A stretch of 64,000 nt of DNA from an uncultured Gammaproteobacteria bacterium (GCA_964349125.1 CAYGFH010000001.1:197408-261407), one strand, 5' to 3'; positions 21,571-37,630 are shown, counted from the first letter of the stretch. Translations and numbers: made by a program. The notes: generated by a model not told the origin, from the letters alone.

Positions 21571-22182
21571 TTATGTCAATAACTCTCGGATGCGTGGCTT
21601 TAGCATATCAATTGCCTTTTTCCGGTGGTTGTAGGCTGCAGTTTCCTCTTTTGTCATGACTGTGTGGTCATAAAATTTCCCAAGTTCAGGCAAATATAAC
21701 AATGCCCTGTATGGAAAACCCTTTGTTCGTGATTCGGATGGAGCAACCGCAACAATTCCTCGGACAAACGCCTCGGATGTGACGACGTTGCCTCTGGGGA
21801 GTGAAAATGCCAAAACGAGCCGTAGTTGTGCACCGCGCTTTTCTATCGGGACTGCCTCCATTTTTTGTATGGTATAGGCGATAAGTTCTTCGTCGGTGTT
21901 TTCGCGGTCCCCATGGATCCATCGGTGCGATTTTACACCCGGCTGCCCACCCAATGCATCGATTTCAAATCCGCCGTCATCGGCAATTGCCGGTAGCCCT
22001 GACAATTTGGCATAGGTCGTTGCCTTCAATATGGCATTCTCCTGAAACGTTTCACCTGTCTCGTCGACATCCACCGTGATACCGATATCTGACAGTGACA
22101 CAAACTCATAGGGCAAATCAGATAAAAACAATCCAAGTTCTTGAAATTTTCCGGGATTGGTGGTGGCGATGAGTATCTTCAT
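21571..22182 (-). CDS. rdgB: Non-canonical purine NTP pyrophosphatase RdgB/Ham1
   Basis: MKILIATTNPGKFQE...ADDGGFEIDALGGQPGVKS Ham1 family motifs. Start placed at the MKIL Met. Confidence 0.85.
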   Translation of the reverse strand: MKILIATTNPGKFQELGLFLSDLPYEFVSLSDIGITVDVDETGETFQENAILKATTYAKLSGLPAIADDGGFEIDALGGQPGVKSHRWIHGDRENTDEELIAYTIQKMEAVPIEKRGAQLRLVLAFSLPRGNVVTSEAFVRGIVAVAPSESRTKGFPYRALLYLPELGKFYDHTVMTKEETAAYNHRKKAIDMLKPRIRELLT

Positions 22183-22855
22183 TTTGTGTGGTATCCAGTA
22201 TACTATCACTATGAAACGCCTGGCTGCACGGTATGCATTGGCATCTCCCTATCTGTTTGTCTTATTCTACCTTATCATAGGATTTTTGACACCGGGATAT
22301 AGTCACACAAAACATACTATCAGCAGATTGTCGCTCGGTGCGTACGGATATTTGGAAACACTCAATATTGTGCAGTTTTCTTTCGGGCTTTTGACGATGA
22401 TCTATCTGATACGCAGTCACATCAGAAATTCACACACGGTAAAACAGATATCCGTTATGCTAAGCGCAATCGCACTTACACTGGTGCTTGTTGCCGTATT
22501 CCCAACTGATCCTATCGACTCATTTCCGCAAAAAATTCTAAGCATTTCGTGGTCGGCACTCGTGCATTTCGGCATAATCGGATGTTTTGTTGTCTGCACC
22601 CCCATCTTAGTTCACAGGCTGTACAGTGTGTTTACGAAAGACCCTATGTACAGAGATCTCGCCCTTACGACGCTGATCTGTGGATGGATGACATTTGTCC
22701 TGTGCATCCTGTGGTTTCTGTTTTTTTATTTCGGCGTGATACCTGAGTATCGTGGTTTATTTCAAAAAATAATTGCAATGATCGTCATATACTGGACAAC
22801 ACGGATAATGAAACGGATCGCAGATACAACAAGAGCGGACTCATCACAGACCTAA
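22157..22855 (+). CDS. Hypothetical polytopic membrane protein (DUF998-like)
   Basis: About 6 predicted TM helices; the true start may be an internal Met (MKRLAARY). Confidence 0.45.
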   Translation: MVVAMSIFILCGIQYTITMKRLAARYALASPYLFVLFYLIIGFLTPGYSHTKHTISRLSLGAYGYLETLNIVQFSFGLLTMIYLIRSHIRNSHTVKQISVMLSAIALTLVLVAVFPTDPIDSFPQKILSISWSALVHFGIIGCFVVCTPILVHRLYSVFTKDPMYRDLALTTLICGWMTFVLCILWFLFFYFGVIPEYRGLFQKIIAMIVIYWTTRIMKRIADTTRADSSQT

Positions 22856-24913
22856 TTCATCATGATGCGCCTGCATCGCACGGAGCGTAAGCTCTATAAA
22901 TTCCGCCAGCGGAATTCCCAGTTTGGTTTCACACTGTGCAATATGCTCCCGATCGACTGGTCTTGCAAACTCTTTTGTCTTCCATTTTTTCATGATCGAA
23001 CTCATCTCTACTGTCTCGAGTTTCTTATCCGGTCTGACGAGCGTAACGGCGACAATAAATCCCGTCAGCTCATCCACAGTCTCCAGCGCCCACTCCATAA
23101 CTGATTCGATTTCGGCCAATTTTGTGAGTTTCCTGTTATGTGATTGTAGAGCTTTCACGATTGGCCCCTTGGTAAAACCCATTTCTGCCAACCACGAGAG
23201 TGTTTTTTTTGTATGTTCCTCGGGCTTGTCTTTGGTTTCCTCCCAGTCGGCATCATGCAATATACCCAAGACTTCCCACACGTCGGCATTTCCGCCAAGT
23301 TTTTCCGCTAGTGCACGCATGGCGTACCCGACTGCATAGCAATGTCGGCGTAAATTTACATTTTGCATGTGTGCATGAAGCATTTCCATTGCCTGCGCTT
23401 TTGTAACAATATCTTTTTCATCTATCACACTGTCTGCCACCAACGCTTTCTCTTTTTTCTGAAACTCCGGGCGAAGTGTCGGGAACAAAATCACATCCTT
23501 AAGCGATGCCTGATCAGTTAATATGGATACGAGTCTGTCTATGCCCATACCCCAACCCGCGGTCGGCGGCATGCCATACTCAAGCGCGCGGATGTAATCG
23601 TGATCAAATGCCTCGTGTTCGTCCTGGCCTTCCTCACCGAGTTTCTCCGATTCACGCCAGCGCACAGACTGGTCTTCGGGATCATTGAGTTCGTTATATG
23701 CGTTGATCACTTCTTTCCCTGCAATAAGCAGTTGGAATGACGCCGTTTTATGGGGATCATGCGGTAACCGCTTAGCCAGTGTGACAAATGCTGTCGGCCT
23801 GTCGGTCAAAAACATAGGTCCAACCAAATAGGGACGTGCAGTTGCCTTATAGAGCGTATCAAGCATCGCTCCATACCCCACCACACCGGTAAGGTCCAGT
23901 TGGATTTTTTTCGCTTTGATTTCAGAGAGTAATTGCTCTTCCGTCTGCGCGACATTTATATCTATCCCGGTATATTCCATGACGACATCGCTGTAAGTTT
24001 TTCTCTCCCATTTTCCTGAGAAATCTATGGTTTCACCTTGGTATGTAATCGTGGAACTGCCGCAAACGTCTTTCACCAAAGAGGCTATCATGGTTTCGGT
24101 ATATTCCATGAGCTTTTCATAATCGGCGTACGCCCAGTAAAACTCCATCATGGTGAATTCTGGATTATGCTGGCGGTCAATCCCCTCATTTCTGAAATCT
24201 TTGGAAATTTCGTATACCTTTTCAAACCCGCCTGCAATCAGTCTTTTGAGGTACAGCTCATCAGATATCCGAAGGTACAAATCCACATCCAGCGCATTAT
24301 GGTGTGTGGTAAACGGTTTTGCGGATGCTCCGCCATAGATCGGCTGCAACACAGGCGTCTCCACTTCCAAAAATCCGTCCGCATCAAAATAATTGCGCAG
24401 GAACCGCACGACTTTTGTGCGAAGCAAAAACACTTCCCGCACTCCGGGATTTACTACCAGATCCACATACCGTTGCCTATAGCGCTCCTCCACATCCTTG
24501 AGGCCATGCCATTTGTCGGGAAGCGGGCGGATTGATTTGGAAAGAAGCCTGAGTCGTGTGGCAAACACAGAAAGTTCTCCTGCCTGTGTCGTACCGACTG
24601 AGCCTTCCGCCTCCACAAAATCACCCATATCAAGAAGCGATACCAGAGCAAACGAATCCGCATCCAGCATATCATGCTTTAAGACCACCTGGATTTTGCC
24701 GGAGAGATCAACGAGGTCACAAAACACTATTTTTCCGTGCCCACGCATTGCCATGATACGTCCCGTGATAACCACGACACTATCTTTGGAATCCCGCGCC
24801 TGTGCCACGGTCTGTGTGCGGCCGGAAACGGACGGATACGGATCTATCCCTCTTTTTTTCAGTTCCTTCAGCTTATTCTTTCTGGTATCGATGAGCTCCT
24901 CGAGTGTTGGCAT
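22844..24913 (-). CDS. lysS: Lysyl-tRNA synthetase (class II) fused to a C-terminal HD-domain phosphohydrolase
   Basis: Residues 1 to about 500 form an OB-fold anticodon-binding domain plus class II core ending ...FPTLRPE. The remaining ~185 aa carry H..H / HD motifs (LRRHCYAVGYAMRALAEKLG...LGILHDADWE...) typical of HD/HDIG hydrolases. Confidence 0.85.
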   Translation of the reverse strand: MPTLEELIDTRKNKLKELKKRGIDPYPSVSGRTQTVAQARDSKDSVVVITGRIMAMRGHGKIVFCDLVDLSGKIQVVLKHDMLDADSFALVSLLDMGDFVEAEGSVGTTQAGELSVFATRLRLLSKSIRPLPDKWHGLKDVEERYRQRYVDLVVNPGVREVFLLRTKVVRFLRNYFDADGFLEVETPVLQPIYGGASAKPFTTHHNALDVDLYLRISDELYLKRLIAGGFEKVYEISKDFRNEGIDRQHNPEFTMMEFYWAYADYEKLMEYTETMIASLVKDVCGSSTITYQGETIDFSGKWERKTYSDVVMEYTGIDINVAQTEEQLLSEIKAKKIQLDLTGVVGYGAMLDTLYKATARPYLVGPMFLTDRPTAFVTLAKRLPHDPHKTASFQLLIAGKEVINAYNELNDPEDQSVRWRESEKLGEEGQDEHEAFDHDYIRALEYGMPPTAGWGMGIDRLVSILTDQASLKDVILFPTLRPEFQKKEKALVADSVIDEKDIVTKAQAMEMLHAHMQNVNLRRHCYAVGYAMRALAEKLGGNADVWEVLGILHDADWEETKDKPEEHTKKTLSWLAEMGFTKGPIVKALQSHNRKLTKLAEIESVMEWALETVDELTGFIVAVTLVRPDKKLETVEMSSIMKKWKTKEFARPVDREHIAQCETKLGIPLAEFIELTLRAMQAHHDELGL

Positions 24914-24950: not shown

Positions 24951-25958
24951 TCAACCTGATAATACACTCCCTTCTGTAAATGCACGGGCGATACTGCCCA
25001 GCGTTTTTATATTGTATCCGCCTTCCTGGAGGTAGACCGTCGGAATACCCAGAGAAGACAATTCTTTCCCGATCCGGTGAAACATCGGCGTGGAAAGCGC
25101 AAACCCGCCAATCGGATCTTTCACATGGGCATCATACCCCACGCTCACCACAAGGTATGACGGTGAGAATGCGCGGATTCTGGCAATCGCAGCGCGTAAA
25201 GCATTGCCGTATACTCGGTCCTTTGTGCGGGGGGGGAGCGGGATATTCAGATTATATCCGACCCCTTCGCCGACACCTATTTCTGACGCCCTTCCCGTAA
25301 AATACGGAAACAGCGTATCGGGATCCCCGTGTATACTGATCATCAGCACATCGCGGCGGTGATACAGCAAGGCCTGCGTGCCGTTTCCATGATGTACATC
25401 GATATCGATGACCGCGACTGTCCCCCGAGTACTGAGATAGTTGGCGGCGATAGCCGCATTATTGAAGTAACAGTACCCGCCCATTTTCGCATATTCGGCA
25501 TGATGACCGGGCGGCCGGCAGAGAGCATAGGATTGCGTCTCCCCAGACATGACGAGTGAAGCGGCAGTGAGTGCGGCCATCGCCGAACCTCGGGCAGCTT
25601 CATAAGTGCTTTCTGATACGGGTGTGTACATATCAAAACTGTATTGTCCCCGCATACCGACAGGCTGTCGTGTGTGCTGATCCTGACCGTACGGAAATAC
25701 AGACGGATACACGTATGTACCGCCAGACTTCCTACTTGATGCTTTCAGATAGCTGATATAGGAGAGCTCATGCACAGCATCTACCCATAACATGGGAAAC
25801 CTGCGTGGCTCTATAGCCCGCATTCCCGGCATGCGGGAAAGTGCACTATTTATCACTTCTATTCTGTCGGGAACCTCTGCATGGGAATCCCTGTTGCCGT
25901 TGAATATCTCGCACGGCGGGCAGTGGCGCATATGTGCGGACGGATACACGAGTTTCAT
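24951..25958 (-). CDS. Histone deacetylase/AcuC/acetylpolyamine amidohydrolase family protein
   Basis: CRPPGHHAE...GYCYFNNAA...IDIDVHHGNGTQ...GDPDTLFPYFTG HDAC class signature motifs. Confidence 0.8.
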   Translation of the reverse strand: MKLVYPSAHMRHCPPCEIFNGNRDSHAEVPDRIEVINSALSRMPGMRAIEPRRFPMLWVDAVHELSYISYLKASSRKSGGTYVYPSVFPYGQDQHTRQPVGMRGQYSFDMYTPVSESTYEAARGSAMAALTAASLVMSGETQSYALCRPPGHHAEYAKMGGYCYFNNAAIAANYLSTRGTVAVIDIDVHHGNGTQALLYHRRDVLMISIHGDPDTLFPYFTGRASEIGVGEGVGYNLNIPLPPRTKDRVYGNALRAAIARIRAFSPSYLVVSVGYDAHVKDPIGGFALSTPMFHRIGKELSSLGIPTVYLQEGGYNIKTLGSIARAFTEGSVLSG

Positions 25959-27034
25959 ATGGACCTCCCTAAAATTTCTGCACGCATCACGGGCGTGAAA
26001 TATATATTTTGTGATTGTGGTGTCAAATACAACATGGTGAAATCACGGTTTCCAACGGGTTCCAATCCATCACGCACGCGGACATTTTGCACTAGCGTCT
26101 GCGGGACAAATCCCTCGCCAATATGGCGGGGAGCCACATCCATCCCTGTGGCAAAGCCAACATTATGTGCGCCCGACCAGAAGTTTGTCTCGGCGATGAT
26201 AAGTGGCGCACATGGTTCAATATCATCGAGTACATGTGCGTGCAGGTGTGAGACAGTCGCCGCCATCAGACCATGACGGTTGACACTCTCGTGCCTCCTC
26301 CACTCCGTGCTCTCTATAATCGGAATACTCCTCCCGTCACCAATGGGCATATCGAGCCTCTCGGCGGTTGCGATTGATACTAATCTGTTTGAGTGGTGAT
26401 CAATGAGTCCGCTAAACCAGACTCTCCGCTCAAGGGCAGGGATCTTTGACTGCATCCTGAGTACCTCCTGTAATCCTGTTACTCCATCTTCGTTCCAGTC
26501 AAATGAGTCTCCCCAGAGGGATAACACCTCGCCAATTCGCGGCGATGCTACCTCTGAGGTGAACACAAATCCTTCTTCCCGCAAGCGGGCCACACGATCT
26601 ACAGGCGCAAACCTCGGAGATCGCTTGGTGGAATCAACAGATGCAACGATTTCTGGCATGCTATGAATGGATTGTCTAGCTGGGCTGTTTATAGCACCAA
26701 GCACCATCCAAATCGGCTCACTGGTGCCGGTAAGAAACCATGTCGGAACAGCAGCCTCCAGCACCTGTGATATGTGCGGATGGCTCATAGAATCCGCAAG
26801 CGTCGACTGGTCCATTAAAACTCTCGCGACACACCTGGTCACACCCATACTCCGGCGTTCTATAGCTTCGTTCCCAAGATGAAATAATGTTTCCATCCGA
26901 TCGATATCATCGATCACCCCGCGATGATAATTGAGATAGTACCGGTCAAATGAACGGCGCTCTAATCCAAGTTGCCCAGTGCTTCCTGTATTTGTATCTC
27001 TATCTGTTTCTGTCATAGTCCTCCTTCGCCACAA
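25955..27034 (-). CDS. Hypothetical protein (weak metallophosphoesterase-like motif pattern)
   Basis: Scattered GD / DHH / H.H motifs (LWGDSFDW, LIDHHSN, SHLHAHV) in the order seen in calcineurin-like phosphoesterases, but not conclusive. 4-nt overlap with the HDAC-family gene. Confidence 0.4.
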   Translation of the reverse strand: MWRRRTMTETDRDTNTGSTGQLGLERRSFDRYYLNYHRGVIDDIDRMETLFHLGNEAIERRSMGVTRCVARVLMDQSTLADSMSHPHISQVLEAAVPTWFLTGTSEPIWMVLGAINSPARQSIHSMPEIVASVDSTKRSPRFAPVDRVARLREEGFVFTSEVASPRIGEVLSLWGDSFDWNEDGVTGLQEVLRMQSKIPALERRVWFSGLIDHHSNRLVSIATAERLDMPIGDGRSIPIIESTEWRRHESVNRHGLMAATVSHLHAHVLDDIEPCAPLIIAETNFWSGAHNVGFATGMDVAPRHIGEGFVPQTLVQNVRVRDGLEPVGNRDFTMLYLTPQSQNIYFTPVMRAEILGRSI

Positions 27035-27181: not shown

Positions 27182-27210
27182 AAAAAATCCCGCTTTCGCG
27201 GGATTGTTTT
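27182..27210 (-). terminator. Intrinsic terminator downstream of greA (palindromic, A/T runs on both sides)
   Basis: AAAAAATCCCGCTTTCGCGGGATTGTTTTG. Confidence 0.7.
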
Positions 27211-27899: not shown

Positions 27900-27908
27900 T
27901 TGTATAAT
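27900..27908 (+). promoter_or_regulatory. Extended -10 element (TGTATAATG) upstream of tRNA-Glu
   Basis: TGnTATAAT 13 nt upstream of the tRNA 5' end. Confidence 0.45.
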
Positions 27909-27911
27909 GTG

Positions 27912-29474
27912 TTACAGATAGCCCCTATCGTCTAGCGGCCTAGGACGGTGCGTTCTCATCGCACAAATCGCCGGTTCGAATCCGGCTAGGGGTACTAAAT
28001 TTGTTTTAGAAGATGCAACGTCTCCAATTAGAGCAAAAGGAAGGCCTAATTCTGCGGTTCCAATACTTTCATTTTTATAGATAACTCCCTTAGGAAACAT
28101 AAGAGTCTGGAATCTTAACTTATATTCAAAAGGAGCATCAAGCCATATGGTAGCCGCGTTATCAAACAAACTCTCTGAGAGGCTAACAAGATAATCTATA
28201 TTAGTTTCCTCAGATACTGAATCGCTCCTTTCAACTTCCTTAATCACGATTTCCTGATCTAACCTTGACTTTGCTCGTTTGTAATCTTCATCGTCCACTA
28301 CACCATCTAGATTCTTTTGAAGTAGCCGTTCTTTCATTTCTCTGAGCTTAGCCACTTCCTTGGTAACTTTATTTAAAATTGACAGCTTCTCTGACTGTTT
28401 TTGTTTCCATACATCATAAAGAATCTCCTTAAATAGTTTTTTGAAGTCGGAATTAGGCTGTATATCCTTTAGTGTACTGTAGAATATTTCTTCTAGAGTG
28501 TTTTTAGAAATTCTTGTCTTTCCACATAGACAATGATAATAGGCATATCGCTTGTTCCTACCTTTAGACCAACTTCCAGTTAAATATTCACCGCATGCAT
28601 CGCACTTGGCTATATTTTTTAGAGGAAAATCTGGATTTTTTACTAAACGCGGCACTGAAGTAAAGGATTTTCCTTCTCTAACTGCTTTGACGCGGTAAAA
28701 AAGTGCTGGTTCAATTATTTTTTCATGCAAACCTTGCACCTCATCTTTCCATCCTCTTACCTCAATAACGCCCATATACAGTTTATTCCGAAGAATATGA
28801 TCCACAGATTGTGGCGTAAGTTTATTGCCTTTGGCGCTACGTAGTCCCCAACGGTTCATTTTTTGAGCCATATCCTTGAGTGTGTAGCCTGTCTGAGAAT
28901 ATGTCTCAAAAGTTTTTAATATTATTGGTGCTTTAACAGCGTCAATTATTATGCCTGCTGGGGTATTTTTATATCCAATCGGTGCTTTCCATGCCCAAAA
29001 GCCTTGTCTTACCTTTTCCTGAAGACCCCATTTTGTTTTATCTGATCTCGTGTCGTTATCCCATTGAGCTACAGCAGAAAAAATATTTTCAATAAATTTA
29101 CCCGTTGATGTCTCATCTATGTTCTCTGAAACTGATCGTAGAACTACATTAAGCTTACTTAGAACTGCTCGCACCATTTGATGGTCAGCTGTGTTTCTTG
29201 AAAACCGATCTAATCTTTGGACTAGTAGCACATCAATCTTCCCACGGTTCTTATGACAATAATCCAACAGTTTAATGAGTTGCGTCCGATCAGCGGTTTT
29301 CGCGGATTCGCCCTCTTCCCTAAAAACTTGAACAATATTCCATCCTTGCCTCGCGCAGTGTTCACGGCAATATTTTTCTTGCGAGTCTAAACTAAAGCCA
29401 CTAGTTGCCTGTTCCTCTGTGGAAACGCGTGTATATATAAGGGCATTCATAATTTTCTCAGCCTTTTTATCCAT
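27912..29474 (-). CDS. Large serine recombinase (integrase) of integrated element
   Basis: N-terminal resolvase catalytic domain (YTRVSTEEQ catalytic Ser; VQRLDRFSRN), central recombinase domain, zinc ribbon CDACGEYLTG...YYHCLCGK, coiled-coil C-terminus. The last ~27 codons overlap tRNA-Glu on the opposite strand. Confidence 0.9.
   Translation of the reverse strand: MDKKAEKIMNALIYTRVSTEEQATSGFSLDSQEKYCREHCARQGWNIVQVFREEGESAKTADRTQLIKLLDYCHKNRGKIDVLLVQRLDRFSRNTADHQMVRAVLSKLNVVLRSVSENIDETSTGKFIENIFSAVAQWDNDTRSDKTKWGLQEKVRQGFWAWKAPIGYKNTPAGIIIDAVKAPIILKTFETYSQTGYTLKDMAQKMNRWGLRSAKGNKLTPQSVDHILRNKLYMGVIEVRGWKDEVQGLHEKIIEPALFYRVKAVREGKSFTSVPRLVKNPDFPLKNIAKCDACGEYLTGSWSKGRNKRYAYYHCLCGKTRISKNTLEEIFYSTLKDIQPNSDFKKLFKEILYDVWKQKQSEKLSILNKVTKEVAKLREMKERLLQKNLDGVVDDEDYKRAKSRLDQEIVIKEVERSDSVSEETNIDYLVSLSESLFDNAATIWLDAPFEYKLRFQTLMFPKGVIYKNESIGTAELGLPFALIGDVASSKTNLVPLAGFEPAICAMRTHRPRPLDDRGYL
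27921..27994 (+). tRNA. tRNA-Glu (anticodon CUC)
   Basis: Cloverleaf: acceptor GCCCCUA/UAGGGGU, anticodon stem GUGCG/CGCAC with loop UUCUCAU (anticodon CUC), T-arm GCCGG-UUCGAAU-CCGGC; overall close to bacterial tRNA-Glu. CCA is not encoded. Confidence 0.8.
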
Positions 29475-29772
29475 TGTGTCTCCTTAATGGTGCCTTATCA
29501 ATACCTTTAGGTGAATTTTTGGAACCACGTACCACTACTGCCTCTGTAATAATTTCAGCAAGGCCATATAACTTATTTAGCATTTCCTGTAAATCCAAAT
29601 CAGACATGGAGCGGGATCTGCCACCCATTATGTTTCTCGCTTTGTTTAATGAAATCATAAAAGCTCTATTAATTTGTGGCCGGGAGGGGAATCCCAGGCA
29701 CAAACCAATAGAGCTAATAAAAGCCTGATTCCCCTTTTGACCACAAAAAATAGCACCGTTAGAAACACACAT
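29467..29772 (-). CDS. Small hypothetical protein upstream of and translationally coupled to the integrase
   Basis: Stop overlaps the integrase start by 8 nt. No recognisable domain; could be a recombination directionality factor. Weak SD; the start is uncertain (alternative Met gives 63 aa). Confidence 0.3.
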   Translation of the reverse strand: MCVSNGAIFCGQKGNQAFISSIGLCLGFPSRPQINRAFMISLNKARNIMGGRSRSMSDLDLQEMLNKLYGLAEIITEAVVVRGSKNSPKGIDKAPLRRHNG

Positions 29773-29863
29773 TTCATTGTGTTGCTAAAAGTGCCAGTCG
29801 CTTTTCAGCGTGTTAGGCTATTAAATTTTTAATATCCTAATTAAATTGTAAGTAATAATTTTA

Positions 29864-30226
29864 TCAATCGTCAACTTTACCCTTATTAGTAAGAATTGAT
29901 CGTATATCAGCAGATAGTTGTTGTAGTTCTGGAAAATTAATTGAACCAGATACCGGTTGTTTAGGCTTACCGATTACTGTCTCAATAATGAATTGCAGCA
30001 TTCTTTCATCTGGAGGCCTTGTATATACATGCTTTCTTTTACCTTCTATGCGAACGCACACAATCTTTCCAAGAGCTATATCAAGAGAAATATCCGCCAC
30101 GGCTTGCCATTGAGTAAGTAAACGATTCACTAAGATATCTCGCGCTTCTACTTCCATGACTGTTTTTATATTTAGTGCACCTTTTTTTCGTCCGGCACCC
30201 GGTCGCATTCCACCTCGTTGTTTCAT
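29864..30226 (-). CDS. Phage-like DNA-binding protein with N-terminal AT-hook-like GMRPGAGRKKG motif
   Basis: N-terminal basic Gly/Arg/Pro motif common in small phage/mobile-element proteins; no other domain recognised. Confidence 0.5.
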   Translation of the reverse strand: MKQRGGMRPGAGRKKGALNIKTVMEVEARDILVNRLLTQWQAVADISLDIALGKIVCVRIEGKRKHVYTRPPDERMLQFIIETVIGKPKQPVSGSINFPELQQLSADIRSILTNKGKVDD

Positions 30227-30312
30227 AATATTTGATTAAAAATCAATAAAATCAAAACTCTATATTATTATGGTACAGGAAAATTTTATCAGAGGGCAAA
30301 TTAGAGGTATGT

Positions 30313-30525
30313 CTACAGAAGTTCTTTCACGGCAACTCTAAGCACACGTGCAATTCTGTTAAGCACTTCTAACGACGGAGCGTTTCTGCCTTGCTCTATA
30401 TAACCCATATACGCGCGACTAATACCGACTTTTTCTCCAAGTTCTTCTTGAGTTAATCCGGCAGAATTGCGCAACTTCTGTACTTTATGTCCGATCACAC
30501 GGGGTAACTTAGCATTCCTTCTCAT
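30313..30525 (-). CDS. XRE-family (Cro/CI-type) helix-turn-helix transcriptional regulator
   Basis: LRNSAGLTQEELGEKVGISRAYMGYIEQGRNAPSLEVLNRIARVL canonical XRE HTH. Confidence 0.85.
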   Translation of the reverse strand: MRRNAKLPRVIGHKVQKLRNSAGLTQEELGEKVGISRAYMGYIEQGRNAPSLEVLNRIARVLRVAVKELL

Positions 30526-30559
30526 TGCCTAATTGTTGGCCAAATGTCTTACAAGTTAC

Positions 30560-30624
30560 ACTTAGCTACAGTTAGCAATTAGCCTCATATTATGCTTGCA
30601 TTTCTGCTAACTTAGGGTTAGCAT
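30560..30624. promoter_or_regulatory. Divergent promoter/operator region with repeated TTAGC / GCTAA half-sites
   Basis: Three direct TTAGC copies (30562, 30572, 30579) and inverted GCTAA / TTAGG / TTAGC copies (30606-30622) between the XRE gene and the divergent small membrane-protein gene. Confidence 0.45.
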
Positions 30625-30635
30625 AAAGAAGATTT

Positions 30636-30824
30636 ATGATTAAGATTATTCTAGTTGTTATTTTTATTCTCGGTGCACTCTTCTCTAATGCCTCCCAAAT
30701 ACCGGCATGGCTACTAGGTGCCGGCAAGCCTAACGATAAGGAAACACCACATTGGAAAGTTTATGGTGTAATAGCGGCATTTTTGTGGGTCGGCTTATTC
30801 GCTATAGCGAATTTAGCTTTATGA
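30636..30824 (+). CDS. Small two-TM membrane protein divergent from the XRE repressor
   Basis: 62 aa with two hydrophobic helices (ILVVIFILGALFS; VIAAFLWVGLFAIANLAL). Confidence 0.45.
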   Translation: MIKIILVVIFILGALFSNASQIPAWLLGAGKPNDKETPHWKVYGVIAAFLWVGLFAIANLAL

Positions 30825-30933
30825 GTGAGTATGGAAAAGATGATAACCGTACAAGACATAGCACAACTTATTAAGCTTGCTCTATTTGGTAGCAACAAGC
30901 AGCGTGTGTTGGCGGTACGCTTGCTTTGCTTGC

Positions 30934-31386
30934 TTAGATAATGTTGTGTACGTTTGAAGCTTCTAAGGGCATTGTACGGAGCATAACGCCTATTTCTTTA
31001 ACAACGGCATCTGCAAATTCAGCCTTGTGAGCATTATCCTTGAGTATTACTCGCTTCACTCCACGTTTTTGGGCTTGTTTATTATATTCCGGAACGGATG
31101 ATATAGAGATTACTTTATCCGGGCCGAATTTCTCAATGTTAAGTATGTGAAACGAGCCACCGAGCTTACAATCACGATCAAGTAGGATTATGTCAAACTG
31201 AATGCTTTTGTTATCGTTAATTAAATTCTCTACCTGTACATGATTTGTAAGCACAATGGTAGACAGATCATAAGGTTGGTCACCCTCAAGGTCCGCGAGA
31301 CGTTCAAGAATAAGAGAAAGCGTTTTGAGATCGTCTTCTAATATAAGAATAGTTTTGTGTAAGACCATACTTGCAGTATACTCCAA
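30934..31386 (-). CDS. Standalone CheY-like response regulator receiver domain protein
   Basis: ILILEDD acidic pair, ILLDRD phospho-acceptor Asp, ISISS Thr/Ser position, KRVILKD Lys position. No output domain. The likely start is the MVLHK Met. Confidence 0.65.
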   Translation of the reverse strand: MEYTASMVLHKTILILEDDLKTLSLILERLADLEGDQPYDLSTIVLTNHVQVENLINDNKSIQFDIILLDRDCKLGGSFHILNIEKFGPDKVISISSVPEYNKQAQKRGVKRVILKDNAHKAEFADAVVKEIGVMLRTMPLEASNVHNII

Positions 31387-31440
31387 CTGTAAACGGGCAT
31401 TTACCGTTGTATCAAGCCCGAAAGTTAATATTTAAGCAAC

Positions 31441-32124
31441 ATGAAAACCATCAACATTACAAGCGTCTTTTTGTTATTGATACTCATTCTTCTTTTAATG
31501 ATTTTGGAGTTCCAATCAAATAATAAAGAAGTTGTTTTGCCAATCGTTATTCAACTTTATGGTGGTTTTGTAGCGGTACTAGTGGGTGTCTACATTCCGC
31601 TGGCAGAGGCTAAGAAAAAAGAAAGGCAAGAAGAACGTAGGCGCATGATTGCTTCTCTAAAACTCATCTGGTCAGAGCTTGATATAAACGAAATTGTGAT
31701 GAGAAATATACTTCTAGGCCTTCAAACAATGCCAAGAAAAATTGACCAGATGTATGATAGCGTTTTATTCGTACTTAATGTGGCAAAAGACCTAAGAACA
31801 GAGGCTTACTATGGTGCTATCTCGTCAGCCACAATAATGACAATTAGCGAATCTGATGCAATATTTAACTCGCTGCAGCAAGCCTACTACAATATGCAAC
31901 TAACAGAAAGCGGCCTGAGCATGACGGCAGATGTATATAAAGAATATTACCAAAAAAATCTAGCTACTATCCCACAAGAATTCAAGGCACAGGTACTGGA
32001 TATTCATGATAAAGAAATAAAAAAGTGTGTAAGCGCGATTACATTCATCGCTACGGCTAAAAAAATAAGCGGAGCATATCTTTCTAAAACGGGCGTTACT
32101 TTTTCCCAAGGCGCTTATATATAA
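31441..32124 (+). CDS. Hypothetical membrane protein (two N-terminal TM helices plus cytoplasmic helical domain), first gene of the OLD cassette
   Basis: TM1 VFLLLILILLLMIL, TM2 VAVLVGVYIPLA, then a charged KKKERQEERRR region and an alpha-helical domain. Confidence 0.5.
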   Translation: MKTINITSVFLLLILILLLMILEFQSNNKEVVLPIVIQLYGGFVAVLVGVYIPLAEAKKKERQEERRRMIASLKLIWSELDINEIVMRNILLGLQTMPRKIDQMYDSVLFVLNVAKDLRTEAYYGAISSATIMTISESDAIFNSLQQAYYNMQLTESGLSMTADVYKEYYQKNLATIPQEFKAQVLDIHDKEIKKCVSAITFIATAKKISGAYLSKTGVTFSQGAYI

Positions 32125-32186
32125 CGGAATTTGCACGCATGTAATTCCGAGGCCGGTGTATAATCATATAAAGATTAATAATACCT

Positions 32187-34205
32187 ATGATATTAAAAAG
32201 TACCCAATTAATAAACGTAAAAAGCTACTATCCTGACTCTACTATCAACTTTGAGAGCGATATAAATATATTTGTTGGTCCGAATGCCGGTGGCAAAAGC
32301 AATCTATTTGAAATTTTACAAGGGGTTATAAATACTATCCTTTTAAAACACGTTACTCTTCAGCAGAATCCGGCTTGGAACGATATCAATAATCCTGAAA
32401 GAAATAAACCCTTCAAGCTAGATTTTGATAATGTGGACCAAAATAATTTGAAGTTGCATATTTTTGACAAGCATTTTAAACATACTACTGAGCCTCAAAC
32501 TATTTATATATCTCTTGAGTTAACAACTGAGGACGTAAAACAAATTAGCTATATCCTTTCTATAAGGGATATAATCATTGCAAAATTGGAAAAAGATGTT
32601 GTTAACTCTCTTCCTTTAACCACTCTGCTTAAATCAATACCCATTGATATCCACTTTGGGGACTTTGTTAACAAGACTGTAAAGTTAATGGTTAATTCAG
32701 AAAATTCATTTACGATAATGATAAGTGATTATGCTGGATATAGCCCAGAACAACAAGCCAGACTTAATATGTTATTTGAATTAATACAGTACAGGAATGT
32801 CTTTCATGAAATTTCCCTTATATCTTTAACACCTGACATCCACCCTGCTAGTAGGTATTTCGGTCCACACAGAACTCTAAATCAAGTTAGAGATGATATT
32901 AATGTAGATTTGAGCTCTGCTGGAAATCTTGAAGATAATTACGCTAAGGACATAAACCAATTTACTGATAATACACGTTCCTTTATTGACTCATCGTTTA
33001 ATAAATTATGTTACCTTTTTAAATCTGGCAACACACATCTACTTGATAGATATAAAGAGTACTTGAGTAAATATCTCAAGGTCAACTTAAATATAAGTCA
33101 AATTGAGCATCCTACCAAGTTTTTATACAGAGTTAACTTCACACGACAATCTGGTACACCCTTAAGACTAAGCTCAGGTGAGAAAGAGTTCTTTAATCTT
33201 ATTAGTGGATTAATCCTATCGGAGCTCAAAGATGGGATTGTGTTTATAGATGAGCCCGAACTTCATCTCCACTTTCAATGGCAACAGGTTATTCTAAATT
33301 TAATTAAGGACTTGTCGCAGGATTTTAATATACAGTTTCTTATCGTTACACATTCTCCAAAATTTATTAATCAAGAAACGTTACCCAAAATATTTAGGGT
33401 GTATATGGGCAATGAATTGTCTAGTTGTATAGTTAAACCTGAGAATCCTTTAAACGGTGCCGACGCTAAAGATTTAATTAAACTCATCAATACAACGAAC
33501 AATGAAAAGGCATTTTTTACTCAAAAAGTAGTTCTAGTTGAAGGTGTATCTGATCTGATTGTCTATTCAAATATACTTCATAAGTTAAAAGATGATGCTC
33601 ATTCTGAAATAGAGATAGAGGTTATTGAAGTAGCAAGTAAAGGCAATCTATTAAAATTTAGAAATCTGCTGACAGAATGGAAAATTGATAATTACATTAT
33701 TGCAGATTTAGGTTACTTGAAAGATGTTAGACGTGATAAAGAACATATGATTCATGAGGAAGAAACAAAGGCAAAATTTGTTAGTTTGAATGATCAGATC
33801 AACAGTCTTGTTCTCTTTTCAGAAGAGGAGCTTAAAAATATCCTATGTAGAAATCCCGGCGAAGATGCAAACACCATTGTGAACTTAATAAGAGATAAAG
33901 AAACATTGGGTAATGATGAATTTACTAAAAGATTATTAACTCTTTGTAACTACATCCGAACACAGCGTGCTATTAAACTTAACCCCCACGCATCCTTTAG
34001 TATACAGCTCGTGGAGCTACTAACAGACTTAGCAGAAAAAGAAAAAATCCTTATACTTAGGGAGGGGAATTTGGAAGATTTATTTAAGCCTCTTAAGACA
34101 GCGGGTAATAAAGTCACTAACGCTATAAGACTAACGAATGGGATTACACTTACTGATATCCCCGAATATTTAAAAACTTATCTAAGGAATATCTTAACAG
34201 CATAA
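32187..34205 (+). CDS. OLD-family ATP-dependent nuclease-like protein (ABC-type ATPase plus C-terminal Toprim domain)
   Basis: Walker A FVGPNAGGKSNLFEIL, ABC signature LSSGEKEFFNL, Walker B IVFIDEPELHLH, H-loop IVTHSP. The C-terminus has a VVLVEGVSDLIVYS Toprim-like glutamate and downstream IIADLG acidic motif, as in P2 Old / GajA-type proteins. Confidence 0.8.
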   Translation: MILKSTQLINVKSYYPDSTINFESDINIFVGPNAGGKSNLFEILQGVINTILLKHVTLQQNPAWNDINNPERNKPFKLDFDNVDQNNLKLHIFDKHFKHTTEPQTIYISLELTTEDVKQISYILSIRDIIIAKLEKDVVNSLPLTTLLKSIPIDIHFGDFVNKTVKLMVNSENSFTIMISDYAGYSPEQQARLNMLFELIQYRNVFHEISLISLTPDIHPASRYFGPHRTLNQVRDDINVDLSSAGNLEDNYAKDINQFTDNTRSFIDSSFNKLCYLFKSGNTHLLDRYKEYLSKYLKVNLNISQIEHPTKFLYRVNFTRQSGTPLRLSSGEKEFFNLISGLILSELKDGIVFIDEPELHLHFQWQQVILNLIKDLSQDFNIQFLIVTHSPKFINQETLPKIFRVYMGNELSSCIVKPENPLNGADAKDLIKLINTTNNEKAFFTQKVVLVEGVSDLIVYSNILHKLKDDAHSEIEIEVIEVASKGNLLKFRNLLTEWKIDNYIIADLGYLKDVRRDKEHMIHEEETKAKFVSLNDQINSLVLFSEEELKNILCRNPGEDANTIVNLIRDKETLGNDEFTKRLLTLCNYIRTQRAIKLNPHASFSIQLVELLTDLAEKEKILILREGNLEDLFKPLKTAGNKVTNAIRLTNGITLTDIPEYLKTYLRNILTA

Positions 34206-34264
34206 GTTCTAACATTGTTGTTAATATTAGTTAAGCTGTTATAATTGGATGCCTGCCAAATTGT

Positions 34265-34948
34265 ATGAAAATTAATTGGCTGGCGGGTCTATTCATAGGT
34301 TGCCTTCTTACATTGCTTGTGCTGGGCTTTAATACCCCATTGTTGCCCAAATTCCAAATTCAATATACCCTTCAAGGCTCGCAATCTGATTGGTTATCGG
34401 CGATTGGAACACTTTTTGCGACAATTACAGCTTTAGTAATAGCTATTTGGGGAAAAAGCCTTCGCAAATTATCGTTCTGGTCGGACATACGCATAATAGA
34501 TTCGCAAGTAAACTTCCAACCATCTAAAGAAGGACGCGGAGGTTATGTAAGGTTCTTGTTTAAAAATTATGGCAATGATACAGCTGAAGATGTTGAAGTT
34601 TATATAGACCACATACAAGATAACGATTCAGATCGTCTTAATTTTTTGCCAGTTCCACTTAGATGGACACATGACGGTCGGTCAAAAAGGAGCTTCCATC
34701 CAAATCAGTATGGGTATTTAGATTTTTGCAATGTTCATGATATTGGAAACAGATCAGATGGGGCGCATTTTACTTTAGCTGCCGGATCTGGAGTCCCTAG
34801 CTATGAACAAATAGCAACAGGCAAATCTCAACTACACCTAATAATTTTTCAAAAATCTGGTCAAATAAAAAAATACAATGTAAATATTAGTTATAATATA
34901 AGCGATAAAGTTCCCAATATTACAAATATTGCGGAAACTATTAATTAA
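34265..34948 (+). CDS. Hypothetical membrane protein (two N-terminal TM helices plus beta-rich domain)
   Basis: TM1 LAGLFIGCLLTLLVLGF, TM2 IGTLFATITALVIAIW; no recognised domain. 59 nt downstream of the OLD-family gene. Confidence 0.5.
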   Translation: MKINWLAGLFIGCLLTLLVLGFNTPLLPKFQIQYTLQGSQSDWLSAIGTLFATITALVIAIWGKSLRKLSFWSDIRIIDSQVNFQPSKEGRGGYVRFLFKNYGNDTAEDVEVYIDHIQDNDSDRLNFLPVPLRWTHDGRSKRSFHPNQYGYLDFCNVHDIGNRSDGAHFTLAAGSGVPSYEQIATGKSQLHLIIFQKSGQIKKYNVNISYNISDKVPNITNIAETIN

Positions 34949-35455
34949 TTGACTATGGATGAAAAATTAAAAGAGAGTCTACGACATATCCAAACGCATC
35001 CAACAACCGGGTTACCTCATAACCAACAACTTATTACTACACAAATTGAATCTATTTTCATGCTTGATAGTCTAGGTGAAAAAATTGATCAATTAAATAA
35101 AACACTTGTTGATTCAGGAAAAATTAATCAAGGACTTGAACAATCAAATTACCGCCTTCAGTGGGCAATGTTGATACTTACTGCCATAGCTACATTTACG
35201 GTTATTTATCCCATCCTTAAAGGATATTTTGTCAGCCTTTTTGTTGTAAACGCGTTTGGATTTTCTGTAACCGCGGCTACGACTGGCTTAATTGCTGCAC
35301 TTGTATCGGGATTGGTAGCAGGAGCATTACTTGGTCTTGCCAAAAGGAGCTTAAATAAGATGGTATTCACGAATTTAGGCGATCAAATTAAAATACGCGA
35401 TAGTGTTAATATCGTATTAAAAGATAAGGACGGGAATATTAAAGAAGCGAGATGA
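34949..35455 (+). CDS. Hypothetical protein with N-terminal coiled coil and C-terminal TM helices
   Basis: Directly abuts the previous gene. Hydrophobic C-terminal half (WAMLILTAIATFTVIYPIL...LIAALVSGLVAGALLGLA). The start is probably the ATG at 34955. Confidence 0.5.
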   Translation: MTMDEKLKESLRHIQTHPTTGLPHNQQLITTQIESIFMLDSLGEKIDQLNKTLVDSGKINQGLEQSNYRLQWAMLILTAIATFTVIYPILKGYFVSLFVVNAFGFSVTAATTGLIAALVSGLVAGALLGLAKRSLNKMVFTNLGDQIKIRDSVNIVLKDKDGNIKEAR

Positions 35456-35505
35456 CATAGCTAACGGCACTTTTATTTAATAGAAGAATATAATTTACCC
35501 ATAGA

Positions 35506-36027
35506 TCACCAGGATGAGACTAATTTTACTAGTTCTTCCCTCGTTCTATTTATTTCATCTTCTAGTTGTTTATATAATTCTTTTGGCATGACATCCGATG
35601 TTCTCATTTGCCACGCATACAAATAATATTTAAGTTTTATACTCACTGTATTGTTAACTTTTTGAAGTTTATTTGCTACAAAAGCAATATGCTCGGAATC
35701 ACGAGGTGGTGATTGGAAGAAGGCCTGTTCGCCTTCAGCGCAGAATTTTAAAACTTCTTCACCTAAATTACTTTTCGTAATAGCGGAATTTCTACGTTTT
35801 TCAAAAAAATATCCTATTAGTTTCTCAACTATCTTATACAACATTGTAAAACCACCAGCTCCACCTGCTGAACCGACTAAAATTGTCGTATACAATTGAG
35901 TCTGACTTATAACAATTGTATTATTTACAGAATTAACAAATAAAGCTGTGGCTGTAGCGTCTGACATATATATAGAGCAGTTTACTGCAAAACTAGTGGC
36001 TGATCCATAGGCTATGTGCTGTATCAA
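35506..36027 (-). CDS. Hypothetical protein (island cargo)
   Basis: 173-aa ORF with a Gly-rich motif SAGGAGGF; no recognised domain. Confidence 0.4.
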   Translation of the reverse strand: MIQHIAYGSATSFAVNCSIYMSDATATALFVNSVNNTIVISQTQLYTTILVGSAGGAGGFTMLYKIVEKLIGYFFEKRRNSAITKSNLGEEVLKFCAEGEQAFFQSPPRDSEHIAFVANKLQKVNNTVSIKLKYYLYAWQMRTSDVMPKELYKQLEDEINRTREELVKLVSSW

Positions 36028-36228
36028 CGTTATAAATATTAATTCTAATACACTATGGCAGTCTTAACTGTGAATGGATGGAGGCTATTAGAAATGGAGC
36101 TACTCCACTGCCTAAATGAAAACAGAAGCTGGTTCCATTGAGAAATCATCTGGGGTACAAGCAAAAAGACAAGGCTAAATGCCTGGTTTTTTGTTTGTAT
36201 TCTCTTAAGTATTGAACCGTCCGAAGGA

Positions 36229-36281
36229 TCGGTTCGGAGCGCCCGTATACCTCGGCGTTGTTACTCATCCGGCTAGGGGGA
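36229..36281 (+). repeat. Degenerate duplicate of the tRNA-Glu 3' end (putative distal att site of the island)
   Basis: GGTTCG...ATCCGGCTAGGGG matches tRNA positions 27973-27992; 13-nt exact core. Confidence 0.5.
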
Positions 36282-36295
36282 CATACAGAAAAAAT

Positions 36296-36919: not shown

Positions 36920-37006
36920 ATATATCCTTTTAAGGATAACATAAAAATTCTTCCGATTCCCCCAAATGGGGTACAAGTAAAAAATTATATGGTAAACTGA
37001 TTCCAT

Positions 37007-37456: not shown

Positions 37457-37630
37457 AAAATTTATCCGAAATAGTATTTAGAATAGATAATTTTTGATTA
37501 AATACGTTCCAATTTCGTCCAAAAAAAGGCTAGCAAATTACCTTGAATTTCAAAAAGTCTTAGAATATCTGGGAAAGCCTAGCGTGCTAGCTATCTTACA
37601 CTGGATTAGTGTAGGTAATTCTCAGAATCT

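Follow-up and report, generated by a model that had tools for sequence, protein, structure and literature searches.

A class II lysyl-tRNA synthetase fused to a predicted HD-domain phosphohydrolase, a widespread architecture in Patescibacteria

Lysyl-tRNA synthetase (LysRS) is the main source of Ap4A, and YqeK is an enzyme that cleaves Ap4N (PMC13627108). Ap4A arises from the adenylate when no tRNA is present (PMC13627108), and class I LysRS has to have tRNA bound before it can activate lysine (PMC11961388). YqeK (COG1713, TIGR00488), the symmetrical Ap4A/Ap4N hydrolase of Firmicutes, is a protein of about 190 aa with an all-helical HD fold. ApaH and YqeK are mutually exclusive in their occurrence. 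Its phosphate-binding residues are R18, K54 (in the HDxxK motif) and R133, and F135 and F163 are used for stacking (PMC13627108). In mycoplasmas, YqeK is fused to or clustered with NadD, an adenylyl-transferring enzyme whose by-products the hydrolase could remove, and the NadD-YqeK fusion has been described as proofreading (PMC9426524).

Additional domains are found in several aminoacyl-tRNA synthetases (aaRSs). The clearest precedent that we found for an HD fold inside an aaRS is the HD domain of GlyRS-beta, in the bacterial (alpha-beta)2 GlyRS. In this domain, a degenerate Ser-Lys stands in place of the HD doublet, and the role is in tRNA acceptor-arm recognition or allostery (PMC8464048). 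LysX (NF002821), an MprF-type lysyl-phosphatidylglycerol synthase joined to a class II LysRS, likewise connects the synthetase with an enzyme that handles its product. The extra domain of LysX is an N-terminal, membrane-bound transferase that uses Lys-tRNA. Editing modules, such as B3/4 of PheRS-beta and the canavanyl-tRNA deacylase CtdA, form a further group. To our knowledge, LysRS is classically considered to have no editing domain, and we know of no ester-editing member of the HD phosphohydrolase superfamily. Searches of the literature on LysRS-HD fusions, Ap4A-hydrolase fusions, release factors and CtdA found no published LysRS-HD fusion.

Here, we describe such a fusion in a 64-kb stretch of DNA from an uncultured bacterium (the window; Table 1). 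The 689-aa protein consists of a class II LysRS (residues 5-483), a linker of about 20 aa and an HD/HDIG domain of about 187 aa. The NCBIfam lysS models NF001756 (606.5 bits; cut-off 468) and TIGR00499 (544.1 bits; cut-off 427.6) are matched end to end above their cut-offs, with residues 5-483 corresponding to TIGR00499 positions 3-494/496. Both parts of the class II LysRS anatomy, the N-terminal OB fold and the class II (D/K/N) core, are matched. By these profiles, the LysRS is a complete class II enzyme, for which lysylation of tRNA-Lys is the predicted activity. A second LysRS of class I or II was not found within the 64-kb window. The LysRS part also matches the corresponding half of the LysX model, at 488 bits and below its cut-off of 742 bits; in contrast to LysX, the extra domain here is a C-terminal soluble HD hydrolase. 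Since the lysS models stop at residue ~483, the C-terminal excess of about 190 aa is real, as the original prediction had stated. The same ORF exceeds the cut-offs of both the lysS and HD profiles, which bears out the predicted covalent fusion.

Table 1. Features of the lysS-HD locus, in window coordinates.
Feature	Coordinates	Strand	Basis and remarks
Ham1/RdgB-type non-canonical NTP pyrophosphatase	21571..22209	-	PF01725, E 1e-38
Convergent DUF998 membrane protein gene	22157..22855	+	PF06197, E 2e-19; overlaps lysS-HD 3' end by 12 nt
lysS-HD fusion ORF, 689 aa + stop	22844..24913	-	ATG start, 0 internal stops; coordinates verified per residue
HD/HDIG phosphohydrolase module, residues 503-689	22847..23407	-	PF01966 and TIGR00277 above cut-offs
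Basic/aromatic patch K642, K643, K647, F649-A650, R655	22949..22990	-	Conserved by column counts
Span of putative metal ligands	23072..23344	-	Invariant or near-invariant in 58 sequences
Putative ligands H524, H553-D554, D556, H567, H592, D614	H524 23342-23344; H553-D554 23252-23257; H567 23213-23215; H592 23138-23140; D614 23072-23074	-	
Linker FQKKEKALVADSVIDEKDI, residues ~484-502	23408..23464	-	Junction comparison and alignment with relatives
Class II aaRS catalytic core, residues 141-480	23474..24493	-	Pfam PF00152 tRNA-synt_2, E 5e-83 (5.3e-83)
Anticodon-binding OB fold of LysRS, residues 47-124	24542..24775	-	Pfam PF01336 tRNA_anti-codon, E 4.5e-15
HDAC-family deacetylase/amidohydrolase, 335 aa, 37 nt upstream of lysS-HD	24951..25958	-	PF00850
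Orphan protein, tandem-GNAT FemX-like fold, 359 aa (likely start 27016, 353 aa)	25955..27034	-	AF2 and Foldseek
Terminator-like hairpin after greA, parting greA from the GNAT-HDAC-lysS-HD unit	27186..27205	-	Pattern match only

A long ORF of this kind could result from a sequencing or assembly error that deleted the stop between two genes, and two genes a few bases apart are indeed found at this place in many relatives. However, three independent assemblies (an ENA contig of 809 kb, a Logan contig of 126 kb and an ENA contig of 7 kb), compared over 1959 nt, show 0 differences, junction included. Furthermore, a relative with about 90% identity (L003) is likewise fused, and full-length fusions with differing linkers make up about 80 of the 120 best database clusters, at 51-93% identity. 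At the 50%-identity level, at least 18 clusters span both domains. No frameshift or stop separating two genes, the event that had been named as fatal to the proposal, was found. The artefact reading is therefore rejected, the junction being the same in three assemblies and repeated in many diverged full-length fusions; its probability is negligible. The linker sequences of the fused relatives are non-homologous to one another in the junction comparison, and stand-alone HD homologues begin at the equivalent of residue ~502-503.

The HD module corresponds to the whole stand-alone protein of about 187-190 aa that is seen in relatives, and most of its 843 homologues are stand-alone. The Pfam HD model PF01966 gives 24.9 bits with the full protein and 27.3 bits with the isolated tail, a small margin over the gathering score of 22, so the HD profile search proposed for the C-terminal region was positive. 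HDIG (TIGR00277) gives 28.1-31.2 bits, again a small margin over its cut-off of 27.6, and is matched by 27/28 family members. The AF2 model of the module is all helical (pLDDT 97.3, pTM 0.93), and the top ~27 Foldseek matches of this model in the PDB are all HD-domain proteins, with E >= 0.014 and TM of about 0.5. A PDB sequence search with the HD sequence alone gave only chance-level matches, 3djb and 3b57.

Dinuclear HD sites are recognised by the extended H..HD..H..H..D pattern (PMC8177086). This motif is complete here, with H567 and H592 between HD and position 614, and its spacings are 29/25/22, versus 29/26/18 in YqeK. H524, H553, D554, D556 and H592 are invariant in 58/58 sequences and H567 is present in 57/58; position 614 is D in 46/58 and E in the other 12. 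The metal-binding motifs that had been noticed in the extension are thus conserved across the family. Because all six residues of the dinuclear site are kept, the module is most likely an active metallo-phosphohydrolase rather than a degenerate scaffold, as judged from sequence. The arginine before the first His, which is strictly conserved in HD phosphatases (PMC8177086), is partly conserved in this family. The patch from K642 to R655 provides candidate substrate (phosphate) binding residues, which would differ from those of YqeK.

The top Foldseek match is E. coli GlyRS-beta (7eiv_C, E 0.014), in which the HD domain contributes to acceptor-arm recognition (PMC8464048). The HD module might therefore be a non-catalytic tRNA-binding or regulatory appendage. 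However, GlyRS-beta has lost the HD doublet, whereas the module here keeps all metal ligands (D/E614 in 58/58 sequences). It is also acidic, and in most genomes it is a protein of its own. A degenerate domain of the GlyRS-beta type is rejected, since the ligands are conserved and the doublet is invariant, versus Ser393-Lys394 in EcGlyRS; an appendage function as a whole is very improbable.

YqeK is similar to the module in size and fold, and shares the six-ligand H..HD..H..H..D signature, in which the H-HD and H-H spacings are almost the same. A PDB search with the family profile found only YqeK-type Ap4A hydrolases (8jja, 2ogi, 2o08, 8wmy and 3ccg) at marginal E values of 0.007-0.9, and YqeK structures are also among the Foldseek matches of the HD model (TM ~0.45-0.5). 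However, the YqeK profile search that had been suggested as a check turned out negative. TIGR00488 gave no match at E <= 1 with the window protein, and it is matched by 8/28 family members with a best E of 9.5e-4, the model cut-off not being reached. On this family, TIGR00488 is equalled or outscored by the HD models of RNase Y and DVU_1551. YqeK orthology is thus rejected at the profile level. In addition, the module has about 19 fewer residues from HD to the third His. By offset from the metal ligands, R18, K54 and R133 of YqeK correspond to L521, W557 and I620, so the HDxxK lysine is not conserved by this offset; the corresponding stretch reads LHDADWEET, with the conserved basic residues at 642-655. 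On profile evidence, the module is a new HD subfamily and not YqeK.

The original prediction had regarded the fusion as a one-off. Instead, the LysRS-HD fusion is a widespread architecture in Patescibacteria, and in the Microgenomates-type members the HD gene nearly always follows that of LysRS directly or is fused to it. In the proposed survey of LysRS architectures in related genomes, the HD gene is fused to LysRS (32) or lies just downstream of it (45) in 77/79 informative loci, a far stronger link than was visible from the single sequence. The LysRS partner is of class II in 60 loci and of class I in 17, and fusion occurs in 32/60 class II loci versus 0/17 class I loci. Of the 45 split loci, 37 have the HD start no farther than 40 nt from the stop of the gene upstream (median 1 nt); in locus L019, an in-frame stop is found two codons ahead of the HD ATG. 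About 13 transitions between the fused and split states are needed by parsimony, a rough figure from NJ/Fitch trees.

Other modules are sometimes found between LysRS and HD in relatives. These are a CtdA-like B3_4 domain, DUF2000, which may be PTH2-like, and, in one relative, a HAD phosphatase. B3_4, for which the aa-tRNA deacylase CtdA is the nearest relative in the PDB, occurs in the arrangements LysRS-I-B3_4 followed by HD and LysRS-II-B3_4-HD, so that the locus behaves as a LysRS-plus-hydrolase cassette. In this respect it resembles the editing systems of PheRS-beta and CtdA, from which the window protein differs in having no B3_4; neither B3_4 nor DUF2000 was found in the 64-kb window. 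A PDB search with the DUF2000 segment of one relative (P0215) found nothing, and a search with the whole P0215 protein gave LysRS matches.

The gene order GreA-LysRS-HD-Ham1-SerRS-MTase-SecA is conserved in related loci. Since this block is broadly conserved, a part of the adjacency signal may be inherited gene order. It is conceivable that there is no specific coupling at all, and that the HD protein, like Ham1, is a nucleotide house-cleaning enzyme of a generic kind and happens to lie behind lysS in a very stable syntenic block. With genes 0-10 nt apart, loss of a stop codon would fuse LysRS and HD neutrally and repeatedly; at gaps of ~1 nt, one mutation is sufficient. The conservation of the block as a whole, the unconserved linkers and the two lineages in which the HD gene lies apart from any LysRS (L075 and L082) are consistent with this explanation. 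However, the position of HD is kept even where the LysRS gene has been swapped for the other class or for another class II lineage, and despite the B3_4, DUF2000 or HAD insertions. Fused forms persist over 40-93% identity, implying long-term retention under selection. Moreover, no fusion of HD to Ham1, which is equally close on the downstream side, was seen in 82 loci. We therefore regard the absence of coupling as unlikely.

The explanation we favor is that the HD module clears by-products of adenylyl transfer by LysRS, such as Ap4A/Ap4N. We give it a probability of about 0.4. In this mechanism, the tethered HD domain would hydrolyze a phosphoanhydride that arises as a side product at the adenylation site of LysRS. 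The likeliest substrates would be the dinucleoside polyphosphates Ap4A/Ap4N, formed from lysyl-AMP and ATP/NTP, and hydrolysis would give ADP/NDP back to the nucleotide pool. A Patescibacteria cell is probably dependent on nucleotide salvage. The HD module would then be a functional analogue, not an orthologue, of YqeK and of NadD-YqeK, with LysRS as the partner here in place of NadD. In favor of Ap4A, we counted the restriction of fusion to class II LysRS, the classical Ap4A producer (32/60 vs 0/17), and the family profile retrieving only YqeK-type Ap4A hydrolases from the PDB (E 0.007-0.9). The acidic module (median pI 5.55, net charge about -8.5), the house-cleaning neighbor Ham1 and the HAD insertion in one relative were counted for a small-molecule substrate over RNA. 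Against Ap4A, we counted the marginal similarity to YqeK and the phosphate-binding residues of YqeK that are not conserved by offset. The 17 associations with class I LysRS also argue against this mechanism. Class I LysRS depends on tRNA for adenylate formation and would be expected to make little Ap4A, and the HD gene follows it in these 17 loci, so that the conserved partner may be something other than Ap4A.

The two LysRS classes have tRNA-Lys and lysine, rather than Ap4A, in common. The HD domain could accordingly have an RNA substrate, namely tRNA-Lys or its 3' end, preparing or policing the tRNA that LysRS charges. Such an activity could be end-healing by a 2',3'-cyclic phosphodiesterase or 3'-phosphatase, RNase Y-like cleavage, or removal of an Np4A cap. 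Bacterial CCA-adding enzymes have an HD domain with 2',3'-cyclic phosphodiesterase or 3'-phosphatase end-healing activity. The inserted modules include the CtdA-like B3_4, and the best Foldseek match is the tRNA-contacting HD domain of GlyRS-beta. The RNase Y HD model matches 18/28 members (best E 1.5e-5) and the Trm56-HD model PRK12703 matches seven, but all of these matches are far under the family cut-offs. YqeK itself decaps Ap4A-RNA (PMC13627108). However, so acidic a module is unusual for an RNA-binding domain, and the stand-alone HD form carries no KH, OB or other RNA-binding module. An RNA substrate is therefore doubtful.

Sharing a polypeptide or operon with the CtdA-like B3_4 domain and with DUF2000, in an association that is independent of the LysRS class, HD may be viewed as a proofreading module of a hydrolase cassette. 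It would hydrolyze non-cognate aminoacyl-adenylates or tRNA-Lys mischarged with ornithine, homocysteine or lysine analogues. However, none of the HD-superfamily enzymes tabulated in a review cleaves a carboxylic ester or acyl-adenylate (PMC8177086). Moreover, HD is constant while B3_4 and DUF2000 are optional, so HD is not simply another editing option, and proofreading in this form is improbable. A broader proposal is slightly less remote, although still distinctly unlikely. HD could be an obligate, so far unrecognised partner of LysRS of either class, carrying out a quality-control step for Lys-tRNA-Lys without a described counterpart, for example hydrolysis of aberrant LysRS-specific adenylates or repair of phospho-lesions at the tRNA-Lys end. 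Together with B3_4, DUF2000 and HAD, it would form a multi-hydrolase proofreading cassette, which, if true, would make it the first editing system dedicated to a lysyl-tRNA synthetase.

A large uncultured bacterial radiation has thus repeatedly fused a predicted dinuclear HD hydrolase to LysRS or placed it immediately after. The LysRS of these reduced-genome bacteria carries accessory hydrolases that are missing from the standard models. For the fusion proteins, automatic annotation as 'lysine--tRNA ligase' alone can be corrected, and a strong, directly testable functional lead is gained for an orphan HD subfamily that comprises at least 843 database clusters. Whether Ap4A is a by-product that cells have to destroy at its source or a signal is a question for which the fusions offer a natural system.

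The genes around lysS-HD are only partly as predicted. The upstream HDAC-family deacetylase is confirmed by PF00850, which matches the 335-aa protein over the full length of the model (positions 1-296/298; 257 bits, E 2.9e-76). The next protein upstream, whose gene overlaps the HDAC gene by 4 nt, had been assigned a metallophosphoesterase-like motif pattern. This identity is rejected, as no calcineurin-like profile or fold match was found. In Pfam and NCBIfam, this protein matches no family at E <= 0.1 except for one chance-level match, and none of its 48 homologues has a Pfam domain; the few named by source are from Patescibacteria. Instead, it models as a tandem GNAT (pLDDT 92.3), with FemX (7z6a, E 6.5e-6) as the best Foldseek match, followed by other GNATs (NatD and NMT). 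HDAC and GNAT genes occur together upstream of LysRS in 11 related loci. A promoter and terminator scan gave total counts no higher than in shuffles; its one meaningful-looking element is the hairpin after greA, which separates greA from the unit. Of the overall interpretation, the class II LysRS-HD fusion with intact metal ligands stands, but the picture of an operon of hydrolases does not, given the tandem-GNAT protein and the hairpin. On the downstream side, the DUF998 gene occupies the same position in four related loci (L001, L003, L004 and L036). Ham1 is the gene next to HD in most related loci; DUF998 intervenes here and in four others.

The lysS-HD gene is one open reading frame whose N-terminal part is a complete class II lysyl-tRNA synthetase (LysRS-II). 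In Pfam, the anticodon-binding OB fold falls on residues 47-124 and the class II D/K/N catalytic core on residues 141-480 (E 5e-83). The matches to the NCBIfam lysS models run end to end (NF001756, 606 bits against a cut-off of 468; TIGR00499, 544 against 427.6). Both matches stop at residue ~483, leaving about 200 residues. Pfam HD scores 24.9 bits on this tail in the full protein and 27.3 when the tail is searched by itself, against a gathering score of 22; HDIG (TIGR00277) scores 28.1-31.2 against a cut-off of 27.6. The original prediction of a LysRS with a C-terminal HD domain stands. Of the two findings named beforehand as refuting it, neither was made: the tail does match HD profiles, and no frameshift or stop splits the ORF into two genes. 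Three independent assemblies (an ENA 809-kb contig, a Logan 126-kb contig and an ENA 7-kb contig) have 0 differences over the 1959 nt compared, junction included, and an artefactual ORF is extremely improbable. The final 12 nt (22844..22855) are overlapped by a convergent gene that is found in few of the related loci compared (L001, L003, L004, L036).

Features of the window
Feature	Coordinates	Strand	Remarks
DUF998 membrane protein	22157..22855	+	convergent with lysS-HD
lysS-HD ORF	22844..24913	-	ATG start, 689 codons, 0 internal stops
HDAC-family amidohydrolase	24951..25958	-	335 aa
tandem-GNAT orphan protein	25955..27034	-	predicted fold; overlaps HDAC-family gene by 4 nt
low-GC stretch	~27900..37500		GC 0.33-0.39, flanks ~0.45
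large serine recombinase	27912..29474	-	3' end overlaps tRNA-Glu(CTC)
tRNA-Glu(CTC)	27921..27995	+	overlapped by serine recombinase 3' end
OLD-family ATPase-TOPRIM protein	32187..34205	+	within low-GC stretch
xylulose-5-phosphate/fructose-6-phosphate phosphoketolase	38908..41319	-	full-length; XFP_N, XFP, XFP_C

A search with the tail alone returned at least 843 homologues. Nearly all are stand-alone proteins of 187-190 aa that begin at the equivalent of window residue ~502, and the few with a named source come from Patescibacteria, Gottesmanbacteria or Microgenomates. In the whole-protein search, query coverage is 94% or more in ~80 of the 120 best clusters at the 90% identity level; these fusions measure 648-727 aa and are 51-93% identical to the query. 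At least 18 representatives in the 50%-identity library align in a single stretch over both domains, down to 37% identity. Since the fusion clusters are so numerous and diverged, the LysRS-HD architecture is, by sequence comparison, widespread and old. Where source names are given, the fusion proteins are called simply lysine--tRNA ligase.

The stronger finding is a family-wide linkage of HD to LysRS that is independent of LysRS class and includes interchangeable hydrolase inserts (B3_4, DUF2000, HAD). We sampled 80 loci from species-representative genomes, retrieved with two HD-family motifs (at least 80 such loci exist, and the sampling favours sequences retaining these motifs), and added L001 and L002. 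Loci were annotated by BLASTP against reference domains.

Arrangement of LysRS (class I or II) and HD in the 82 loci sampled
Arrangement	Loci	Remarks
LysRS-II-HD fused	31	
LysRS-II-DUF2000-HD fused	1	
LysRS-II, then separate HD gene	20	
LysRS-I-B3_4, then HD	13	
LysRS-I, then HD	4	
LysRS-II-DUF2000, then HD	4	
LysRS-II-B3_4, then HD	4	one has split ORF
upstream sequence ends too early to read	3	
no LysRS upstream of HD	2	L075 Saccharimonadales, L082 Berkelbacteria

HD is fused to LysRS or lies directly behind one in 77/79 informative loci, and this genomic coupling is near-obligate. In 37/45 split loci, no more than 40 nt separate the upstream stop from the HD start (median 1 nt). Four split loci (L014, L017, L061, L068) have an interval of 0.7-1.5 kb separating the HD gene from lysS; the frame after lysS in L017 carries GCRFGCVYCYA, a CxxxCxxC motif that hints at a radical-SAM enzyme. 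Many MAG records among L003-L082 are titled 'uncultured Gammaproteobacteria bacterium' despite a clearly Patescibacteria-type gene block, and the title seems to be a placeholder or a taxonomic mislabel.

In loci whose HD domain is 65-75% identical to that of the window, the LysRS part is ~45-48% identical, ~66-73% identical, or of class I, which indicates that the HD gene stayed in place while the LysRS gene ahead of it was exchanged. On the neighbour-joining (NJ) tree, several deep LysRS-II clades contain fused forms. Fitch parsimony on the NJ trees gives, as a rough count, ~13 fused/split changes on the HD tree and likewise on the LysRS-II tree. In split members of the window's clade, lysS ends in "...RPEK*" or "...RPESA*" and the HD gene starts (ATG) within a few bases; L019 has an in-frame stop two codons ahead of that ATG. 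The linkers of fused members (window/L003, L005, L009, L040) are 20-30 aa long and non-homologous, and look like flexible tethers. Near-abutting genes and non-homologous linkers together indicate that fusion, as read from these junctions, is a one-step event that arose repeatedly. No description of it was found in the literature searched; the fusion is real, recurrent and, to that extent, undescribed, and, since both of its domains are of known kinds, it does not form a new category.

The HD module (residues 503-689) is an uncharacterised subfamily. Across 58 aligned sequences, H524, W546, H553-D554, D556, H567 (57/58), H592, D/E614, G618, F649-A650 and R655 are invariant or nearly so, and K642, K643 and K647 are kept at 90-95%. 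The ligands follow the H..HD..H..H..D signature that diagnoses dinuclear HD sites, and YqeK, the HD-domain Ap4A hydrolase, uses H21, H50-D51, H83, H109 and D127 (PMC8177086). The ligand spacings are alike (29; 25; 22 against 29; 26; 18 in YqeK), although the stretch from HD to the third His is ~19 residues shorter in the window module. An AlphaFold2 model from the 58-sequence alignment is all-helical and of very high confidence (pLDDT 97.3, pTM 0.93). Foldseek against PDB gave no match at E <= 1e-3, and its top matches, with TM about 0.5, are exclusively HD-superfamily proteins, the best being GlyRS-beta HD (E 0.014), PgpH, SP1746/YqeK proteins and 2pq7. A non-catalytic, tRNA-binding role like that of GlyRS-beta is very unlikely: GlyRS-beta carries Ser-Lys where the HD doublet would stand (PMC8464048), whereas the window module keeps H553-D554 and its other ligands are conserved. 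A family profile built from 28 HD-only sequences retrieved five PDB sequences and no others, every one a YqeK-type Ap4A hydrolase (marginal E, 0.007-0.9), and aligned the SHN histidine with the fourth YqeK ligand. Among curated models, HDIG alone reaches its cut-off; DVU_1551, RNase Y, TIGR00295, NadD-YqeK and YqeK are sub-threshold, and membership of the YqeK family was rejected. The YqeK substrate residues include R18, K54, R133, F135 and F163 (PMC13627108), of which the first three correspond, by offset from the ligands, to L521, W557 and I620. The module is a distinct, probably dinuclear subfamily that looks catalytically competent, with YqeK as its nearest characterised neighbour by profile comparison.

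The domain anatomy, the retained metal ligands, the near-obligate coupling to LysRS and the repeated fusion are shown; for the substrate we infer, as the best-supported reading and with a probability of roughly 40%, that the HD module removes dinucleoside polyphosphates. The LysRS active site would make them and the coupled HD domain would clear them in a YqeK-like manner. NadD-YqeK is a precedent for an HD hydrolase fused to an adenylyltransferase and has been read as proofreading of side products (PMC9426524). The clearance reading also draws on the following observations. HD fusion occurs with class II LysRS only (32/60 against 0/17 for class I; Fisher p 3e-5, the kinship of the loci ignored), the nucleotide-sanitising Ham1 is the next gene in most loci, and one relative (L070) adds a HAD phosphatase. 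The main argument against Ap4A clearance is that the same HD gene is paired with class I LysRS in 17 loci. Class I LysRS requires tRNA for lysine activation (PMC11961388) and is therefore no obvious Ap4A producer. tRNA-Lys, or a product derived from lysine, could be the constant partner of HD instead. The module is acidic (median pI 5.55), which suggests a small-molecule substrate and speaks against RNA, and this too favours the clearance reading. An RNA or tRNA-end phosphodiesterase is an unlikely alternative to clearance. Equally doubtful is a neutral fusion, in which a generic house-cleaning enzyme sits within a frozen syntenic block; the wider conserved block reads GreA-(GNAT-HDAC)-LysRS-HD-(DUF998)-Ham1-SerRS-MTase-SecA.

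Other domains also occur at the LysRS/HD junction. In Pfam, the relatives' proteins include P0173 (LysRS-II + B3_4 + HD, 941 aa), P0186 (LysRS-II + B3_4), and P0187 and P0215 (LysRS-II + DUF2000), and L001 has a class I LysRS (PF01921) with B3_4, then HD. C-terminal B3_4 is found on LysRS of either class (L001:3717-5999, L008, L011, L016, L027, L030 and others, besides P0173 and P0186). Closest to it in the PDB are CtdA, the canavanyl-tRNA deacylase (9f7e, E 2e-4), and a further B3/4 protein that is likewise free-standing; on LysRS, B3_4 would be a post-transfer editing domain. We know of no such domain described for LysRS, and the CtdA family paper makes no mention of B3_4 on LysRS. DUF2000 (PF09391), for which no PDB sequence match was found, is fused to LysRS-II in P0187, P0215, P0234, L004, L013, L015, L031 and L052; in L004, DUF2000 and then HD follow within one polypeptide. 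Proofreading of the adenylate or aa-tRNA by HD, beside B3_4 or DUF2000, is improbable. L070 is a LysRS-II + HAD_2 phosphatase + HD triple fusion (L070:4170-5000, within a 1020-aa ORF), with HAD_2 as a further hydrolase at the same junction.

Upstream, the 335-aa protein belongs to the HDAC family (Pfam), as predicted. For the 359-aa protein, the earlier reading of a metallophosphoesterase-like motif pattern is rejected. Its start is likely at 27016, giving the 353-aa P0390, which has no Pfam or NCBIfam match and belongs to an orphan family of 48 members, the few named ones being Patescibacteria. The P0390 model has a tandem-GNAT fold (pLDDT 92.3); its best PDB match is FemX (E 6.5e-6, TM only 0.35), and other GNATs rank next. 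FemX is an aminoacyl-tRNA-dependent transferase. In 11 loci sampled (for example L006, L010, L011, L028, L037, L041 and L071), the GNAT-HDAC pair immediately precedes LysRS, be it class I or class II; possible roles are Lys-tRNA-dependent transfer and salvage of lysine or acetyl-lysine. Behind greA lies a terminator-like hairpin. The Kelch-repeat gene adjoins greA in L001, a syntenic relative, so the ~9.6-kb low-GC segment of the window looks inserted. This segment contains several orphan ORFs and has the look of a mobile or defence element that has integrated.
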